NCBI GenBank assembly: GCA_016432425.1
Contig: CP066688.1
Coordinates: forward strand, 20,368-84,367
Source of the DNA: Candidatus Daviesbacteria bacterium
GTDB lineage: Bacteria; Patescibacteriota; Microgenomatia; Daviesbacterales; UBA10151
DNA length: 64,000 bases
Reading direction: 5' to 3'
The notes beneath the pieces were generated by a model. The model saw only the letters and a list, made by a program, of their open reading frames with translations. It made no database searches and had not been told where the DNA came from. A program made the translations under genes and the position numbers. Shown here piece after piece: positions 136-7,565 of this stretch (positions are counted from its first letter, which is position 1; each line of letters starts with the position of its first letter).

Positions 136-140
136 TTTTG

Positions 141-212
141 AGCCGGTGGACAGAATCGAACTGTCGATCTTCATTTTACGAAAATGCTGCTTTACCACTA
201 AGCTACACCGGC
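141..212 (-). tRNA. tRNA-Thr (anticodon CGU)
   Basis: The reverse complement folds as a 72-nt cloverleaf. Acceptor GCCGGTG/CACCGGC, D-stem GCTT/AAGC and T-arm GACAG-TTCGATT-CTGTC all pair. The anticodon loop is TTCGTAA with one mismatch at the top of the anticodon stem. CCA is not encoded. Confidence 0.8.
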
Positions 213-1825: not shown

Positions 1826-2385
1826 AAGAAACTCTATCCCACTGCTTCCTCGCTTACTAACGCCTATGGTTGTTTCACTACAGAATATAAGTGATGTGAT
1901 GAATTAAGATGCTACCTTTAGATGAAATAAGAAAGTATTATCCTAATGCATCGGAAGATAAGTTAAAAGATATACAGGAAGTTGTTTACTTATTGGCTTG
2001 TGCAGTTATGCAAGAATTTTATGGGCCGCCTTTGGCGAGCCTCGCTCATTGAGCGGGTCAAAGTGGATGGGAAATTTTGAAGAGTCTGGTCAAGAGGAGA
2101 AATAGCGAGCTGAAAGCTAGTTCGACTCTCGTTAGGGTGTAAGATTATAAGCCCAAACTTTAACGAATTTTAGTAACATTCCGAAGCTAAAATTTGTCAG
2201 TTCGATTAAATTCCTATGTCCTTCGACTTCGCTCAGGATTATAAGAGCACCGGATGCAAATTATTTTGAACCCCTACCTGAATATGTCATAATCGAGTTT
2301 AACAGAATCAGAAAAGCACTACAAGCTTTAGAGGAGGGATAATTACCTACAATTCTTTCTTACATTCTGATAAAATTGACGGGAA

Positions 2386-3042
2386 ATGAAAATTATTAAT
2401 ACTTCCACCAAGGATAGGATGTATACGGCCTGGCTCAAAAGTGAGTTTTACAGAATGAAGGACACTTTGAGTCAGGAGCAAATAGGCCTTATTGAGACAC
2501 CAAATTTCAATGATCAAGCAGAAAATGAGCAAAGGGAAAATTTGATTTTGAACATATATGGCAGGAGTCCAATAATGGATCATGTTCCGACAGCCATTAC
2601 TTGGTATGAGGTTGAAATTGAAGAAAAAGATTTAGAAAATTTATACCTACTGGCTATATGGGATTGGTTTATCGATACAGGAAGAACATTTAAGCTCTCA
2701 GGAGTTTCGAAAAATTTGTCTAGCGGACACGGACACCGTATTTCTAATTTTCCTCCGGGGGCTGCAGATCACAAGATAAAAATAGATGAAATGTTAAAAG
2801 TTATGAATGACAACGTTCAAGATATTGTAATGATTAGTTCTTCTAAAGATGGACCATTTACAATTATTGATGGTACTCATCGTTCCAGCTTACTAACTAT
2901 TAAAGGTGGTCTACCAGGAACTAAAGCATATTTGGGCGTAGCATCAGACTTATCTAAATGTGTTTGGGCACCTGAATGGGAGAACTATGAACAGAATCTG
3001 GCTGAGCTAAATCGAATAGTAAATGAAGGATACTTATGGTGA
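2386..3042 (+). CDS. hypothetical protein with C-terminal ParB/sulfiredoxin-like fold (DGTHR motif)
   Basis: The C-terminal half reads KIKIDEMLKVMNDNVQDIVMISSSKDGPFTIIDGTHRSSLL. This resembles the ParB/Srx nuclease-domain core (hydrophobic strand, then DGxHR, compare DGQHR/DGQQR families). The N-terminal 120 aa have no recognizable pattern. The stop overlaps the start of the next gene. Confidence 0.5.
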   Translation: MKIINTSTKDRMYTAWLKSEFYRMKDTLSQEQIGLIETPNFNDQAENEQRENLILNIYGRSPIMDHVPTAITWYEVEIEEKDLENLYLLAIWDWFIDTGRTFKLSGVSKNLSSGHGHRISNFPPGAADHKIKIDEMLKVMNDNVQDIVMISSSKDGPFTIIDGTHRSSLLTIKGGLPGTKAYLGVASDLSKCVWAPEWENYEQNLAELNRIVNEGYLW

Positions 3043-3848
3043 GTGAAAGTATAATAGCATCAAGTTCTGCTACGATAAATCAAACGTTACCTACGGTGGT
3101 AAATGGCTTAACAGGTTTGGGTGCAATGGTAGCCGCAGCCTTTTTCGGTGGATTATTTGCCGGAATTTGGACGAATTACTTTGAGACTAAAAGGAGAATC
3201 CATGACAAGCGACACGATAGGTATTACGAACATAGGAATACTATTGTTCAATTCGAGCAAGAGTTAATTCCCCTCAGGGTAAACATCTCTCGAGATATAA
3301 CTTCAATAGCTGATGCCATAAAAAACACTAATGAACTGAATATTCGATTTATATTGAGATTCTACAAATTATTTTTAAGCACAGGTTTGGGGTTAAAACT
3401 CTTAAATTTAGACTTAATCAATAAATATGCAGAACTTTATTCAGCTATTGAGAGTTTAAATTCAGATATTGACTACGTTTCTGGAATGATATCATCAGTC
3501 ATAGAAGATCAAAAAGAGGACAAGATTGATCCCTCTAAAATTGAAGCTTATAAAGTATTCTTGCCTCAATTACAAGACGCATGCGAGCAAATTGACCAGA
3601 AATCATTAGAGCTTTTGGCTACGAGTAAGTTAACAATAGGTAAAGAGGATAAAAGAATAAGAGATAAATATATTGATGATGGTAAGGAAATAAGATACTC
3701 ACTTACCAAAGAAGCACTGGCTAAAAAGTACAAAGGTATTAAAAAAGAGGAGGATGGTTCTCTACATAAAGGTGAGAAACAACCTAAGTTCGTTTCTCCA
3801 TTTCTAGATTTAAAGAAAGTGCTTATTACAACAACTCCCGTAGTGTAA
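3036..3848 (+). CDS. hypothetical membrane protein (one N-terminal TM helix plus a long coiled-coil/charged region)
   Basis: A TM helix (LTGLGAMVAAAFFGGLFAGIW) is followed by about 200 aa of K/E/D-rich helical sequence. It overlaps the upstream gene by 7 nt (ATGGTGA), indicating translational coupling. Confidence 0.55.
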   Translation: MVSESIIASSSATINQTLPTVVNGLTGLGAMVAAAFFGGLFAGIWTNYFETKRRIHDKRHDRYYEHRNTIVQFEQELIPLRVNISRDITSIADAIKNTNELNIRFILRFYKLFLSTGLGLKLLNLDLINKYAELYSAIESLNSDIDYVSGMISSVIEDQKEDKIDPSKIEAYKVFLPQLQDACEQIDQKSLELLATSKLTIGKEDKRIRDKYIDDGKEIRYSLTKEALAKKYKGIKKEEDGSLHKGEKQPKFVSPFLDLKKVLITTTPVV

Positions 3849-3978
3849 AAAGACTAAAGGAAGAGACGGGATTTGAACTCAAAGGAAGCTGGTTCAATGT
3901 AAAAATGTTGAGTGGCGGACGGGGTGCTAAACAAAATATGAATTATTTGTGCCTACAATGTAAAAAATTTCTATTTAG

Positions 3979-4049
3979 AGCGGGATACGGGAGTCGAACC
4001 CGTCTCTCTACCTTGGGAAGGTAGTGTTGAACCGCTCAACTAATCCCGC
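3979..4049 (-). tRNA. tRNA-Gly (anticodon CCC)
   Basis: The reverse complement folds as a 71-nt cloverleaf: acceptor GCGGGAT/ATCCCGC, D-stem GTTG/CAAC, anticodon stem CTACC/GGTAG with loop TTCCCAA, T-arm ACGGG-TTCGACT-CCCGT. The discriminator is U, as expected for bacterial tRNA-Gly. Confidence 0.85.
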
Positions 4050-4091: not shown

Positions 4092-4817
4092 ATGAGTTAC
4101 CGATCCAGAATACGTTCCCACTCTACCCGCCGTTCTAAGCAAAATTTTTTTGCCACCATTATTATTGCTTTACTGCTACTTTTTATTAGTATTAACTGGA
4201 TACTGCCAGCTTTAGTTTCAGTCATGGGGAAAATCCGCAATCTTGGGAATCAGACCAGCAAAATCTCTTCCCAAGTAGCTGATAACCCCACTTTGGCTCC
4301 CCCAGTTTTTATTATTCCTTATCAGGCCACCAATTCTGCCCAAATAGACATTAAAGGCTACGCCACCACTAACTCTAAGGTAGAACTTTATTTGGATGAG
4401 GAGTTAAAAGACACTGTGGCTGTAAACGAAGATGGTACTTTTGTCTTCCAAAATATTTCTTTAAATTTGGGTCTTAATAATATTTATGGTAAAACCCTGG
4501 ATGAAAAAGACCAAGCTAGTTTGCCTTCTAAAAACATCCAGCTAATTTATGATAATACCAAACCTTCACTGCAAGTAAATGAGCCGGAAGACGGCAAGAC
4601 AGTTACGGGCGGGGAGAAAAATATTAAAATATCCGGCAAAACTAATCCTGATGCACAAGTTACTGTCAATGAAGTTACCGTAATTGTAGACAAAGAAGGT
4701 AATTTTTCCACTAGTCAAGCCTTAAATGAGGGTGATAATAATTTTACTATTAGGGCTGGCGATGCGGCCGGAAATTACGCTGAGGTAGTAAGGCGGGTAA
4801 GTTACAAATCTTCATGA
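4092..4817 (+). CDS. membrane-anchored extracytoplasmic protein with two Ig-like (Big-type) beta domains
   Basis: An N-terminal basic stretch plus one TM helix is followed by repeated beta-rich modules (NEDGTFVF... / KEGNFST...) ending in GNYAEV. Its stop overlaps the next start (ATGA). Confidence 0.65.
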   Translation: MSYRSRIRSHSTRRSKQNFFATIIIALLLLFISINWILPALVSVMGKIRNLGNQTSKISSQVADNPTLAPPVFIIPYQATNSAQIDIKGYATTNSKVELYLDEELKDTVAVNEDGTFVFQNISLNLGLNNIYGKTLDEKDQASLPSKNIQLIYDNTKPSLQVNEPEDGKTVTGGEKNIKISGKTNPDAQVTVNEVTVIVDKEGNFSTSQALNEGDNNFTIRAGDAAGNYAEVVRRVSYKSS

Positions 4818-6013
4818 GTATTTTAAGTTGGGTATTGGTGGTAGCTATTTGTGCGGGGCAACTGATTAAAATCTCTTTTGGTGAGGGAGGGATTACTATT
4901 TTAGATCTGACAGTGGGATTTTTAGCAATTATTAATTTCTTTAGCTGGATAACTTCTGTCAAAACTTTTAAAATAAATTTAATCAATTTCTCTACTATGG
5001 GTTTTATCATTGCAGCAGTAGTTTCCTTAATCCTGTCACCCATTCACTTAACTGCCAATGAAAAACTGATTGCTGCCTCCTATATTGTCCGGTTAGGAGC
5101 CTTTTTCTCATTGCTGTGGTTTCCGAGTAAATTATTATCCCCTTTACAAAAGGATAGTACAAAAATTTTACTCTTTTCCGGGGTTATCATAGCTGTTTTG
5201 GGGATAGCGCAACTAACCTTTTTTCCGGATTTACAATTTTTAGCTGCTGCAAATTTTGACCCTCATTATTTACGGACCGTTTCGACCTTTTTAGACCCTA
5301 ATTTTACCGGGGCTTTCCTAAGTTTAACAGCCATAATTTTGTGGCCTAAATTATTTACTAAAGATACTTTTAAATCAAATGTGTGGATTTTTATCCTAAT
5401 TTATATTACCCTGTTAACCACTTTTTCCAGAGGAGGATATTTAAGCTTAGTTAGTGGCTTATTAATTATTTCCTTAATTAATAAATCCTTTAAACAAGTT
5501 CTCTTAACCATAGTTTTAGGCGCTATTTTACTTTTTTCTTTTCAACAGTATACTTTACAGGTAGCAGCTCCCAGAAAGATTGACCGGGCCCAGTCAGCAG
5601 CTGCCCGCTTGGATACTTGGCAGCAAGGTTGGAATTTATTTCAAAGATATCCCATTTTGGGGGTAGGGTTTAACGCTTATCGTTATGCCTTGAAACAACT
5701 TAATTTGGCTGATGAACAGTTTTTAAGCAAAAAAGGTGCCTCTACTAATGATTCAAGTTTACTGTATGTGGCCGCTACTACCGGAATAATCGGGCTGGGA
5801 TTTTATTTAAGCTTCTTGGGAGGAATTTTAAAACTAGGCTGGTATAAAATATCACACCTCGGGGGTATGATATTAATTGGAGGTTTAATAGCCCTGCTTT
5901 CTCAAGGCTTTTTCGCCAACACCCTCTTTTATCCATTCCTCCTAATCTGGATAATACTAATAATTTATTCTGTGGGCACTGAGGGACTTGAACCCCCGAC
6001 ATCTGCAATGTGA
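4814..6013 (+). CDS. Wzy_C / O-antigen ligase-family polytopic membrane protein (WaaL/PglL-like)
   Basis: About 10 TM segments flank an external loop with the Wzy_C signature RLDTWQQGWNLFQRYPILGVGFNAY...SSLLYVAATTGIIG. The last 13 codons run antisense through tRNA-Val. Confidence 0.7.
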   Translation: MSILSWVLVVAICAGQLIKISFGEGGITILDLTVGFLAIINFFSWITSVKTFKINLINFSTMGFIIAAVVSLILSPIHLTANEKLIAASYIVRLGAFFSLLWFPSKLLSPLQKDSTKILLFSGVIIAVLGIAQLTFFPDLQFLAAANFDPHYLRTVSTFLDPNFTGAFLSLTAIILWPKLFTKDTFKSNVWIFILIYITLLTTFSRGGYLSLVSGLLIISLINKSFKQVLLTIVLGAILLFSFQQYTLQVAAPRKIDRAQSAAARLDTWQQGWNLFQRYPILGVGFNAYRYALKQLNLADEQFLSKKGASTNDSSLLYVAATTGIIGLGFYLSFLGGILKLGWYKISHLGGMILIGGLIALLSQGFFANTLFYPFLLIWIILIIYSVGTEGLEPPTSAM

Positions 6014-6125: not shown

Positions 6126-6716
6126 ATGGATCCTAGTTCTTATAATCCCTCTGCTCAGGATGACCGAGGTTTTTGGGGGAGTTTAGGCGCCCATTTTATT
6201 GACCTTTTTGAAACTTTTGTCATTATTGGGGCAATTTTCCTCCTTTTCTACCAATTTGTAGGCCAGCCACATCGGGTTTCCGGTAACTCCATGGTGCCTA
6301 CTTATTTAGATGGAGATTTTATTCTAACTGATAAATTAACCTATCGTTTTAACCACCCCCAAAGAGGAGAGGTGGTGATTTTAAAAAATCCCCGGGATGA
6401 GTCAATAGATTTTATTAAAAGGGTCATTGCTTTGCCGGGAGACAGTATCCAAATTCTGGGAGGCTCTGTTTATCTTAACGAGAAGTTGCTTATTGAACCT
6501 TATTTACCGGCTGACACAGTTACCCAGAGCGGCAATTTCCTGCGTGAAGGAGAGACAGTTACTGTAGGGTCCAATCAATACTTTGTCTTTGGTGACAACA
6601 GAGCCCATTCTTCTGATTCCAGAGAGTGGGGGCCAGCGACTAAAGAAGAAATTATCGGCCGGGCTTTTTTGCGTTATTTTCCCCCTCAGAGGGTAAGGCC
6701 GTTAGTCGGACTTTAG
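6126..6716 (+). CDS. lepB: signal peptidase I (S26 family)
   Basis: An N-terminal TM helix is followed by box B GNSMVPT (Ser nucleophile), box D IKRVIALPGD (Lys) and box E FVFGDNRAHSSDSREWG. Confidence 0.85.
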   Translation: MDPSSYNPSAQDDRGFWGSLGAHFIDLFETFVIIGAIFLLFYQFVGQPHRVSGNSMVPTYLDGDFILTDKLTYRFNHPQRGEVVILKNPRDESIDFIKRVIALPGDSIQILGGSVYLNEKLLIEPYLPADTVTQSGNFLREGETVTVGSNQYFVFGDNRAHSSDSREWGPATKEEIIGRAFLRYFPPQRVRPLVGL

Positions 6717-7565
6717 ATTAAAATAACCGGTGATCGCTTGATGAATATCCTCTAAGATTGGTGTTGTTTGAGAAGGATCTCCTTCTATCACCATATCAAT
6801 TTTGACTCTTTTAGCAGTTTGAGAACATTTAACTTGTGAATTTTTTAACCGGGTAGAAAAAAGCGTGGTTAGATCATCTTGCAATCTATCAACTTCATCA
6901 GAAAGAATATGCATGCTCTCAATCACTGCGCTTTTGCGGGGATTAATGCCTGCTTTAGCCCGGAAACGGCGCACCAGTTCTTCTGTTCCCCTAACAGATA
7001 AATTCCTTTTCAAAACTTCTTTATAAGCTTCAATAATTAAATGAGGGTCTTCTAAGGCTGCTAGCGCTCTGGCATGGCCTTCAGTGGTTTGCCCTGACAT
7101 CAAAGCATCTTTAAGGGCATCAGGTAAAGTTAAGAGCCTAATGGTATTAGAAATATAGGCCGGGCTTTTGCCCACCCTAGTGGCAATTTCATTATTAGTT
7201 AAGGCAAACTCATCCATCAAACGTTTATAAGCTTGGGCCCGCTCCAGAGGATTTAAATCCATCCGCTGCACGTTTTCCACAATAGCCATTTCCAACATTC
7301 CCCGCGGATTGGTCTCCCGGATAATTACCGGCACTTTAGATAACCCTACCAGTTTAGCTGCCCGCCAACGCCGCTCGCCTGCCACAATTTGAAATCCAGC
7401 CGGAGTTTTGGCCACTACTAGAGGTTCCAAAATACCATGCTCTTTAATTGAATCTGCCAACTCCGCCAGGGAATCCGGAGTAATTAAACCACGAGGCTGC
7501 AGGGGATTAGGCTGAAGTAAATTAATATCCAGTTCGTTAATTTGTTCGTTTTGTTGATCGTCCAT
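6702..7565 (-). CDS. parB: ParB/Spo0J chromosome partitioning protein
   Basis: The ParB N-terminal box LLQPNPLQPR...LAELADSIKEHGILEPLVV...IVAGERRWRAAKL is present, with an HTH and a C-terminal dimerization domain. No parA is adjacent. Confidence 0.85.
   Translation of the reverse strand: MDDQQNEQINELDINLLQPNPLQPRGLITPDSLAELADSIKEHGILEPLVVAKTPAGFQIVAGERRWRAAKLVGLSKVPVIIRETNPRGMLEMAIVENVQRMDLNPLERAQAYKRLMDEFALTNNEIATRVGKSPAYISNTIRLLTLPDALKDALMSGQTTEGHARALAALEDPHLIIEAYKEVLKRNLSVRGTEELVRRFRAKAGINPRKSAVIESMHILSDEVDRLQDDLTTLFSTRLKNSQVKCSQTAKRVKIDMVIEGDPSQTTPILEDIHQAITGYFNLKSD

Follow-up and report, generated by a model that had tools for sequence, protein, structure and literature searches.

The DNA analysed here, called the window throughout, is a stretch of 64,000 nucleotides from Candidatus Daviesbacteria (Microgenomates, Candidate Phyla Radiation, CPR; contig CP066688.1, positions 20,368 to 84,367 of the forward strand), in which two overlapping genes, A and B, are found between two tRNA genes. 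Gene A (2386..3042, + strand) is an open reading frame (ORF) for a soluble protein of 218 amino acids (aa), gene B (3036..3848, + strand) is an ORF for a 270-aa single-pass membrane protein with a predicted cytoplasmic helical bundle, and proteins identical to the two products are HYW45_00120 and HYW45_00125, respectively. Both genes are single-copy within the window. A word-indexed search returned 45 clusters of close homologues for A and 83 clusters for B, and the ratio of nonsynonymous to synonymous divergence (dN/dS) was 0.06-0.085 for each of them, which indicates strong purifying selection; since both have many homologues and such low ratios, A and B are real genes. An exhaustive profile search for the A family recovered 808 representatives at E <=1e-3 and 308 at E <=1e-10. 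Genes of this family occur in several CPR phyla, Gammaproteobacteria, Zixibacteria, Actinomycetota and Victivallales; nevertheless the distribution of A, like that of B, is sporadic and patchy. No relatives of A were detected among PLSDB plasmids, INPHARED phages or in IMG/VR, and none of B among PLSDB plasmids or INPHARED phages. Neither A nor B matched any model in Pfam, NCBIfam, PHROG or PADLOC (PADLOC-DB v2, E <=1), in agreement with an earlier interpretation made from the letters and translations of this DNA (the sequence-only reading), which had not recognised the pair as a described system.

The junction of the two genes (3026..3042, + strand) consists of a Shine-Dalgarno-like element, AAGGA (3026-3030), and TTATGGTGA. 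The element stands inside A, 5 nt before the ATG of B, and the overlap, ATGGTGA, is 7 nt long (3036-3042), the ATG of B being placed inside the Leu217-Trp218-stop of A; both the overlap and the Shine-Dalgarno-like element are thus present where two coupled genes had been proposed. The ATG of B arises only where Leu217 of A is encoded by TTA, as in the loci carrying both genes, while loci with A only have CTT or CTC. Additionally, the N-terminus MV[SN]E is found only in the A-paired copies of B, and the unpaired copies begin with MLIASNS. The TTA-dependent ATG and the MV[SN]E extension, together with the Shine-Dalgarno-like element inside A, suggest that coupled translation of A and B is under selection in the paired clade. 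The best candidate promoter for a common transcript (TTGAAC-16-CATAAT with TG, 2266..2293, + strand), about 90 nt upstream of A, comes from a consensus scan only and is not evidence of function. An apparent overlap of A with a HEPN-like gene via 'MVSE' in another locus (L008) was rejected as the artefact of a TTG-start ORF: that gene natively starts at an ATG 21 nt downstream, and the stop codon of A in this locus is TAA. It was also observed that the synonymous divergence of B is about 2-2.5 times that of A in the same genome pairs (L017 vs L018: dS 0.50 for A and 1.25 for B); exchange of B alleles was considered for this higher value and discarded, no sharp identity breakpoint being present at the junction.

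The loci examined were 55 that contain A and 15 that contain B. The two genes were adjacent, with the same 7-nt overlap, in six of the 55 A loci, namely the window and five metagenome loci (L017-L021), and the DNA homology of the paired loci to the window is confined, with sharp edges, to 2368-3832 plus the tRNA-Gly gene. In L008 and L026, where A is 81% identical, a different gene follows 21 nt downstream of A. As regards the 3' end of B, a conserved ORF of about 76 aa (...IEPIKDNSxFTKxEIEEFKxxALKEHGVKLTDEQAFEQGY...), convergent to B and overlapping its end, was noticed in L017 (6033-6263, - strand) and L018 (3337-3714, - strand). The window is without this convergent ORF at the end of B, and the gap upstream of its A gene has an unrelated-looking ORF of 47 aa (1909-2052, + strand).

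Protein A is composed of a family-specific N-terminal alpha/beta region, with invariant W16, E20, N47 and R50, followed by a C-terminal ParB/Srx-like core. The core contains DGTHR (D162-G163-T164-H165-R166, codons 2869..2883, + strand), a putative phosphate-binding loop that is invariant in alignment A1 and is directly preceded by the strand FTII; the hydrophobic strand, the motif and the coordinates of the ORF are as they had been described from the sequence. Among 140 superfamily members the box [IVL][IVL]-[DE]-G-[NT]-H-R is near-invariant (G 140/140, H 128/140, R 138/139, D/E 69/71), and conservation in the same alignment extends to E20, N47, R50, P68, D82, W94 and T159. The AlphaFold2 (AF2) model of A (pLDDT 90.9, pTM 0.88) has, after the family-specific N-terminal region, the order strand-helices-strand-strand-helix-strand-helix from residue 72.

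When profiles of A were compared with the sequences of the PDB, the best match was SbnI with each of them, at E 0.49 (A1), 0.03 (A3) and 6.1e-4 (A5), the last being a cleaned, broadened profile of 86 sequences, of which the top three PDB matches were all SbnI (5uje, E 6.1e-4; 5ujd and 6nr6, about 0.02). With about 50 residues the match is of marginal length, and it always aligns helix-strand-strand-DGxHR, so that the invariant PxTII[DE]G[TN]HR of the A family falls on the DGVHR of SbnI. With hhalign the FTIIDGTHR of A was placed on the FQIVAGERR of ParB, and GGCHR of Srx came in register with DGTHR, a comparison that is a lead only. Foldseek returned Srx, KorB, Noc and SerK (5x0k) as the best PDB matches of A, all weak and none significant, and its top 50 in BFVD were mostly ParB/Sulfiredoxin, Spo0J, DndB-like and GmrSD_N entries, with a best probability of 0.95. 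The Pfam models of ParB_N (PF02195), GmrSD_N/DUF262 and DndB matched neither A nor 90 superfamily members (E <=0.1). For a ParB/Srx core the lines of evidence converge, but they are modest: the SbnI profile match, the motif alignments and the weak Foldseek matches uphold the assignment of the C-terminal half of A to this fold, and we conclude that A forms a very divergent branch of it that had not been described.

A further resemblance to ParB was observed outside the core. The invariant E-N-x-x-R of A (residues 46-50, ENEQRENL) is similar to Box III (ENVQRMDL) of the canonical ParB that the window itself encodes (6702-7565); in A some 115 residues separate it, on the N-terminal side, from the Box II-like DGTHR, and in ParB Box III is C-terminal of Box II. 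Placed on the other side in A, the motif could be a permuted or convergent element of a nucleotide pocket. Together with the ParB/Srx core and the mobile-element contexts of some A genes, this motif could be taken to mean that A acts on DNA, either as a partition protein or cytidine triphosphate (CTP) clamp of the ParB type or as a ParB-like nuclease serving a mobile element. We give this explanation hardly any credence: the 218 aa of A contain no helix-turn-helix (HTH; Pfam) and no C-terminal dimerisation domain, there is neither a ParA neighbour nor a match to Pfam ParB_N, a canonical ParB is already encoded at 6702-7565, the nearest solved relatives by sequence are kinases, and the family was absent from the plasmid, phage and IMG/VR collections mentioned above. 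Because A has no HTH and the genome has its canonical ParB elsewhere, A is probably an enzyme or switch that uses a nucleoside triphosphate (NTP) and not a DNA clamp.

In the loci without B, A is solitary or next to genes of very different kinds. Candidate effector-type genes stand repeatedly 0-200 nt from A on the same strand. A TIR_2 protein is adjacent in L047 (same strand, E 1.9e-14), the sole effector-type neighbour above the curated Pfam cutoff; the SIR2_2-like protein that overlaps A by 4 nt in L035 is marginal (24.0 bits vs the cutoff of 24.5). A HEPN-like protein with an invariant DLRN[LK]CDH is encoded 21 nt downstream of A in L008, a 572-aa protein bearing Rx4H overlaps A in L001, and a nucleotidyltransferase-like protein forms a pair with an RHALMH protein beside A in L003. 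Transmembrane (TM) proteins are same-strand neighbours in L009, L028, L052 and L014, and in about 20 representatives A is itself fused to 1-12 TM segments, and P0044 has a C-terminal TM tail. Further neighbours include a type IIG restriction-modification (RM) gene, a giant GmrSD_N protein, a coupling protein of a type IV secretion system, AbiEii, a prokaryotic Argonaute (pAgo) and DruA, and one A gene is near a serine recombinase with PriCT.

The HEPN-like gene of L008 (6675-7466) belongs to a family whose members, about 265 aa long, are also present in L026, P0274-P0393 and L065-L067, and amount to more than 4,000 clusters at 60-70% identity in distant phyla, among them CPR, Peregrinibacteria and Bacteroidetes, with no Pfam model. 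The C-terminal DLRN[LK]CDH is invariant (RNx3H, of the HEPN type), the gene is usually solitary and in unrelated contexts, and a profile of the family found no match in the PDB. This RNxCDH family gives the impression of an uncharacterised mobile HEPN-like gene with a very wide distribution.

In a remote branch of the A family (EGNHR type, profile E ~1e-20), the domain forms the C-terminal cytoplasmic part of flippases of the Wzx/MOP type (Polysacc_synt_3). Such fusions were seen in P0216 (L068:6001-8475), P0220, P0254 and P0242, and P0216 has a further STAS domain and is located within a cluster of glycosyltransferase family 2 (GT2) and glycoside hydrolase genes. To our knowledge, a flippase with an A-type ParB/Srx-like domain is an architecture that has not been described. 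These fusions, and the position of the cassette near Wzy_C, glycosyltransferase and Big-domain surface protein genes in the window and in L017, would fit an envelope housekeeping function, in which A is a nucleotide-dependent regulator working with membrane proteins of surface polysaccharides or glycoconjugates and B is its membrane partner. This function is improbable in our view. The flippase fusions belong to the remote branch, and a census of 146 neighbours of stand-alone A genes revealed no enrichment of polysaccharide synthesis. The linkage to Wzy_C and Big is one syntenic case in close genomes, separated from the cassette by tRNA genes and differing in orientation between the window and L017; furthermore, A of L008 is elsewhere, beside HEPN-like and AbiEii genes, and the sporadic, patchy distribution of A and B argues in the same direction.

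The membrane anchor of protein B is near its N-terminus: the glycine-zipper TM helix (3105..3173, + strand; residues ~24-46, ...AAAFFGGLFAGIW...) is followed by the basic stretch KRRIHDKRHDR, and FFGGLFAG within the TM segment is conserved in alignment A2 (32 sequences). Since the basic stretch comes after the TM helix (positive-inside rule), the topology is predicted to be N-out and C-in, with the C-terminal domain in the cytoplasm. In the AF2 model (pLDDT 85.5) the TM part belongs to one continuous helix, 12-96, and this long helix forms a bundle with two further long ones and a pair of short strands. The single N-terminal TM helix that the sequence-only reading had assigned to B is therefore retained, and the long charged coiled-coil gives way to a predicted bundle of three long helices. 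Fold searches returned generic helical bundles only (de novo bundles, IncA, BAR domains and the four-helix bundle of chemoreceptors), and no specific sequence or fold relatives of B were found. Alignment A2 has twenty invariant polar or aromatic positions, and a membrane-adjacent block of its invariant columns (R59, Y63, H66, R67, N68, V71, Q72, E74, E76; 3210..3263, + strand) is a candidate active or interaction site. The many invariant polar residues suggest that B has a specific binding or catalytic site and is not a mere pore-former. A HEPN reading of R59-x6-H66 and R67-N-x3-Q72 was rejected: these residues are in the first juxtamembrane helix, Q stands in place of H, and there was no HEPN fold match. 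In one locus (L004: 5511-5999; 6001-6825) a B variant of the P0089/P0092 type was found with a different N-terminus, closely resembling the TM/juxtamembrane segment (LLSGLxGxxxGAVxGGYxSYxG...LYKQ..RR) of a 162-aa gene just upstream, which suggests that the membrane anchor was swapped between tandem genes.

Copies of B outside the paired clade were found in defence and mobile surroundings. One is part of a type I RM operon without A (hsdS-hsdR-149aa-B-PD(D/E)XK), another lies on a prophage-like contig, at its edge, beside a serine integrase and a terminase, a third follows an HTH_3 gene in the vicinity of a recombinase, PLD-SNF2 and Fic, and others are near BglII RM and RadC, near PglZ-like and TCAD9 genes, or before a TIR/deoxyribosyltransferase-like gene. 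The small genes preceding B have no homology among them. On the prophage-like IMG/VR contig (L016) a fusion of ParB_N with an N6_N4 methyltransferase was noticed (4429-5751, - strand), adjoining the small and large terminase subunits and the large serine integrase. Association with defence and mobile genes (RM, TIR, GmrSD, AbiEii, recombinase, prophage and conjugation genes) was thus confirmed for A and for B independently. The more general statement of the sequence-only reading, that pairings of ParB-like domains with membrane effectors are common in anti-phage systems, could not be substantiated from the literature.

We tentatively favour the explanation that A-B is a lineage-specific, co-translated operon of two independently mobile accessory genes, most likely a regulator-effector conflict module. 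In such a module, of the abortive-infection or toxin-control type, A would bind an NTP via its [DE]GxHR loop, probably hydrolysing it or transferring a phosphate, and would use it to restrain or to trigger the adjacent effector, which in the window would be B; A might act either as a sensor and activator or as an antitoxin-like inhibitor. The cytoplasmic bundle of B would receive the signal of A, and the glycine-zipper helix would form oligomers that damage the membrane or depolarise it, leading to the arrest of the cell or of the invading element.

The main rival, which we grade as strong and regard as a distinct possibility, is that A and B are coincidental neighbours: two self-sufficient accessory genes, juxtaposed once in a tRNA-flanked hotspot and co-transcribed, with no regulation of B by A. 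Several observations weigh against the regulator-effector module and for this rival. Each gene is far commoner alone, as B is absent from 49 of the 55 A loci and the nine B loci fetched without A, in six distinct arrangements, contained no A. All six paired loci belong to one narrow clade (A at least 83% identical, about 78% DNA identity), at least three of them are at the same tRNA locus, and L009 has A between the same two tRNA genes with no remnant of B; because the pairing is limited to this clade, A-B may be a single juxtaposition inherited vertically. The neighbours of A and B are highly heterogeneous and share no domain: no neighbour family of A is recurrent, and BLAST/phmmer comparison of the large genes upstream of A (L001, L047, L037, L035, L003 and others) found no common N-terminal domain. 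Many A genes are solitary or beside metabolic genes (Glu/Leu dehydrogenase in L042, EamA three times), the HEPN calls consist of a motif and sub-threshold matches, and the HEPN-like family adjoining A in L008 is normally solitary. Moreover, compact CPR genomes often have short gene overlaps, and for this reason the overlap alone is no proof of functional coupling. The composition of the window region is not anomalous. Of the hotspot or defence-island context that had been claimed, the hotspot part is borne out by the different cargo that L017 and L009 carry in the same bracket, but the defence-island part is not, the window neighbours being housekeeping genes (Wzy_C, Big-domain protein, signal peptidase, ParB, ribosomal proteins).

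It should be emphasized that A-B is not a conserved two-gene system, as co-occurrence across diverse genomes was not found. The pair is missing outside the six loci, and this is close to the situation, absence or uncoupling in all relatives, that the sequence-only reading had itself named as telling against its two-gene module. What speaks against mere coincidence is the junction, where in the paired loci the start of B is built into the stop region of A (TTA, MV[SN]E) and the Shine-Dalgarno-like element is inside A; the repeated placement of A, on the same strand, at 0-200 nt from candidate genes of the effector type, or its fusion to TM segments; and the sharp homology edges of a cassette that is kept as a unit.

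The hotspot itself could be delimited. It is bounded on the left by tRNA-Thr(cgt) (140..212, - strand), which also brackets A cargo in L017 and L009, and on the right by tRNA-Gly(ccc) (3978..4049, - strand), which is next to A or A-B in L017, L018 and L009. Between the two tRNA genes the window has a DUF2795-like gene, a fragment, a NUDIX gene (1259-1825, Pfam E 2.9e-9), A and B; L017 has an M3 peptidase, A and B, and L009 has a PIF1 helicase, two small genes and A. As the contents of this bracket change from one relative to another, the stretch between tRNA-Thr and tRNA-Gly is a variable hotspot. The 560-bp stretch before A (1826-2385) contains no ORF of at least 50 aa and gave no Rfam match; hence the location between the two tRNA genes, the NUDIX neighbour and the non-coding stretch upstream were all found as noted before. 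No att-like or other flanking repeats were detected around the interval and no integrase inside it, and the marks of an integron cassette or a tRNA-targeting element (attC-like or tRNA 3'-end repeats, a nearby integrase) were not seen.

Smaller features of the interval were also recorded. The NYN-domain pseudogene that had been reported is reduced to a 45-aa fragment on the minus strand with no Pfam match: the frame '...KGKVAVFIDAANLELSAKDRGKGRCLY*' (...KVAVFIDAANL..., window ~1105-1240) resembles the truncated start of an NYN/LabA-like domain and may be a gene remnant. A non-coding tandem repeat of 24 nt, ATCAAGCTCTGCTTAATACGAAGT, is present in three copies, the third degenerate, at 853-924, between the DUF2795-like gene and the NYN-like fragment. 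Just past B, at ~3862-3885 (+ strand), AGAGACGGGATTTGAACTC is similar to the T-arm of the adjacent tRNA-Gly (AGAGACGGGTTCGACTC) on the opposite strand. Comparison of the window with L017 revealed an inverted orientation of the tRNA-bracketed segment with respect to the LysM, Big and Wzy_C genes on its flanks; this inversion and the T-arm-like fragment may be the scar of a tRNA-mediated inversion.

The regulator-effector reading of A-B would have consequences beyond this locus. If it is true, A represents a new ParB/Srx branch, invisible to Pfam-based surveys and tied to classic abortive-infection effector classes, and A-B joins a short list of candidate immune or toxin modules that belong to ultra-small CPR bacteria themselves, a group in which little is known of defence. 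A wider form of it, rather unlikely in our estimate, is that the A family is the conserved core of a phylum-spanning modular defence class not recognised before, in which a highly divergent, NTP-dependent ParB/Srx protein, acting as a sensor or as an enzyme that generates a signal, works together with exchangeable effectors; the effectors would then be a B-like membrane protein, HEPN, SIR2 and TIR, and the CPR would have their own membrane-effector version. If A and B are merely juxtaposed, they are an ordinary pair of hypothetical accessory genes at a tRNA-flanked variable spot. Whatever the function, three families without a curated model were delineated: A (808 representatives), B, and the RNxCDH HEPN-like family (>4,000 clusters). 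The pair is a reasonable lead for the discovery of defence systems, especially in CPR, although the lead is weakened by the fact that A-B is not conserved.

As regards known systems, the ParB/Srx fold and the logic of an NTPase plus an effector are known already, and the A family, the B family and their pairing are undescribed in the libraries and the literature searched. A 2025 survey of the ParB fold used recognisable ParB domains, and it mentions no TM, flippase, HEPN or TIR associations. The closest comparison is offered by SbnI of S. aureus and SerK of T. kodakarensis, free L-serine kinases of the ParB/Srx fold that use ATP; SbnI is the sole solved protein that was reached by the sequence profiles of A, and SerK (5x0k) is among the weak fold matches. 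A shares with them the helix-strand-strand-DGxHR-helix core, the small size and the lack of the ParB clamp architecture. It differs from them in an N-terminal extension of 65 residues, an insertion of about 50 residues and the invariant W16, E20, N47, R50, D82 and W94, and in having no siderophore or cysteine-biosynthesis context; the likeness is in the core motif alone, and a kinase role of A is putative. In the CTP clamps ParB, Noc and KorB the position of Box II is equivalent, and a nucleotide-switch logic is plausible for A, but A lacks the HTH, the dimerisation domain and the ParA of canonical ParB, and its Box III-like ENxxR is N-terminal of Box II.

ToxB, a ParB-fold ATPase toxin of contact-dependent growth inhibition (CDI) systems with a downstream immunity gene (bioRxiv 10.64898/2026.05.05.722872), is likewise a divergent ParB fold; it acts in a conflict system, does not bind DNA and must bind ATP in order to work. 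Within CdiA it forms the C-terminal warhead, and it has a dedicated immunity protein, whereas A is free-standing and cytoplasmic and has changing neighbours. The example of ToxB, in which toxin and downstream immunity gene were demonstrated experimentally, and the order of the genes, A upstream and B immediately after, bring up a toxin-immunity pair, with A as an ATP-consuming ParB-fold toxin and B protecting against A or exporting it. We consider such a pair very improbable, as A often has no adjacent small partner fit for immunity and no secretion or CDI context, and B without A is widely found in defence islands, a distribution that would not be expected of a dedicated immunity protein.

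The regulator-effector module that we prefer is nearest, in idea, to the ParB-HEPN, DUF262/GmrSD and SspE systems, in which a ParB/Srx NTP module stands beside a toxic effector or is fused to it. HEPN families 'in operon with ParB' were predicted in 2013 by Anantharaman et al. (PMC3710099), and relatives of A with adjoining HEPN-like genes (L008, L001, L003) resemble these operons. A further precedent is the ParB fold itself, for which uses as an ATP-dependent enzyme and as a toxin are on record. The known systems combine domains that Pfam recognises, bearing DGQHR or DGQQR motifs, with effectors of the nuclease or HEPN kind; none of the models concerned matches A, whose partner in the window, in contrast to the HEPN-ParB operons, is a membrane protein without a HEPN match. 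With no sequence or fold similarity to any described effector, B resembles in architecture and context the single-pass or glycine-zipper membrane effectors of abortive-infection and toxin systems: its N-terminal TM helix is a glycine zipper, its cytoplasmic domain is helical, and its surroundings include RM, prophage and recombinase genes.

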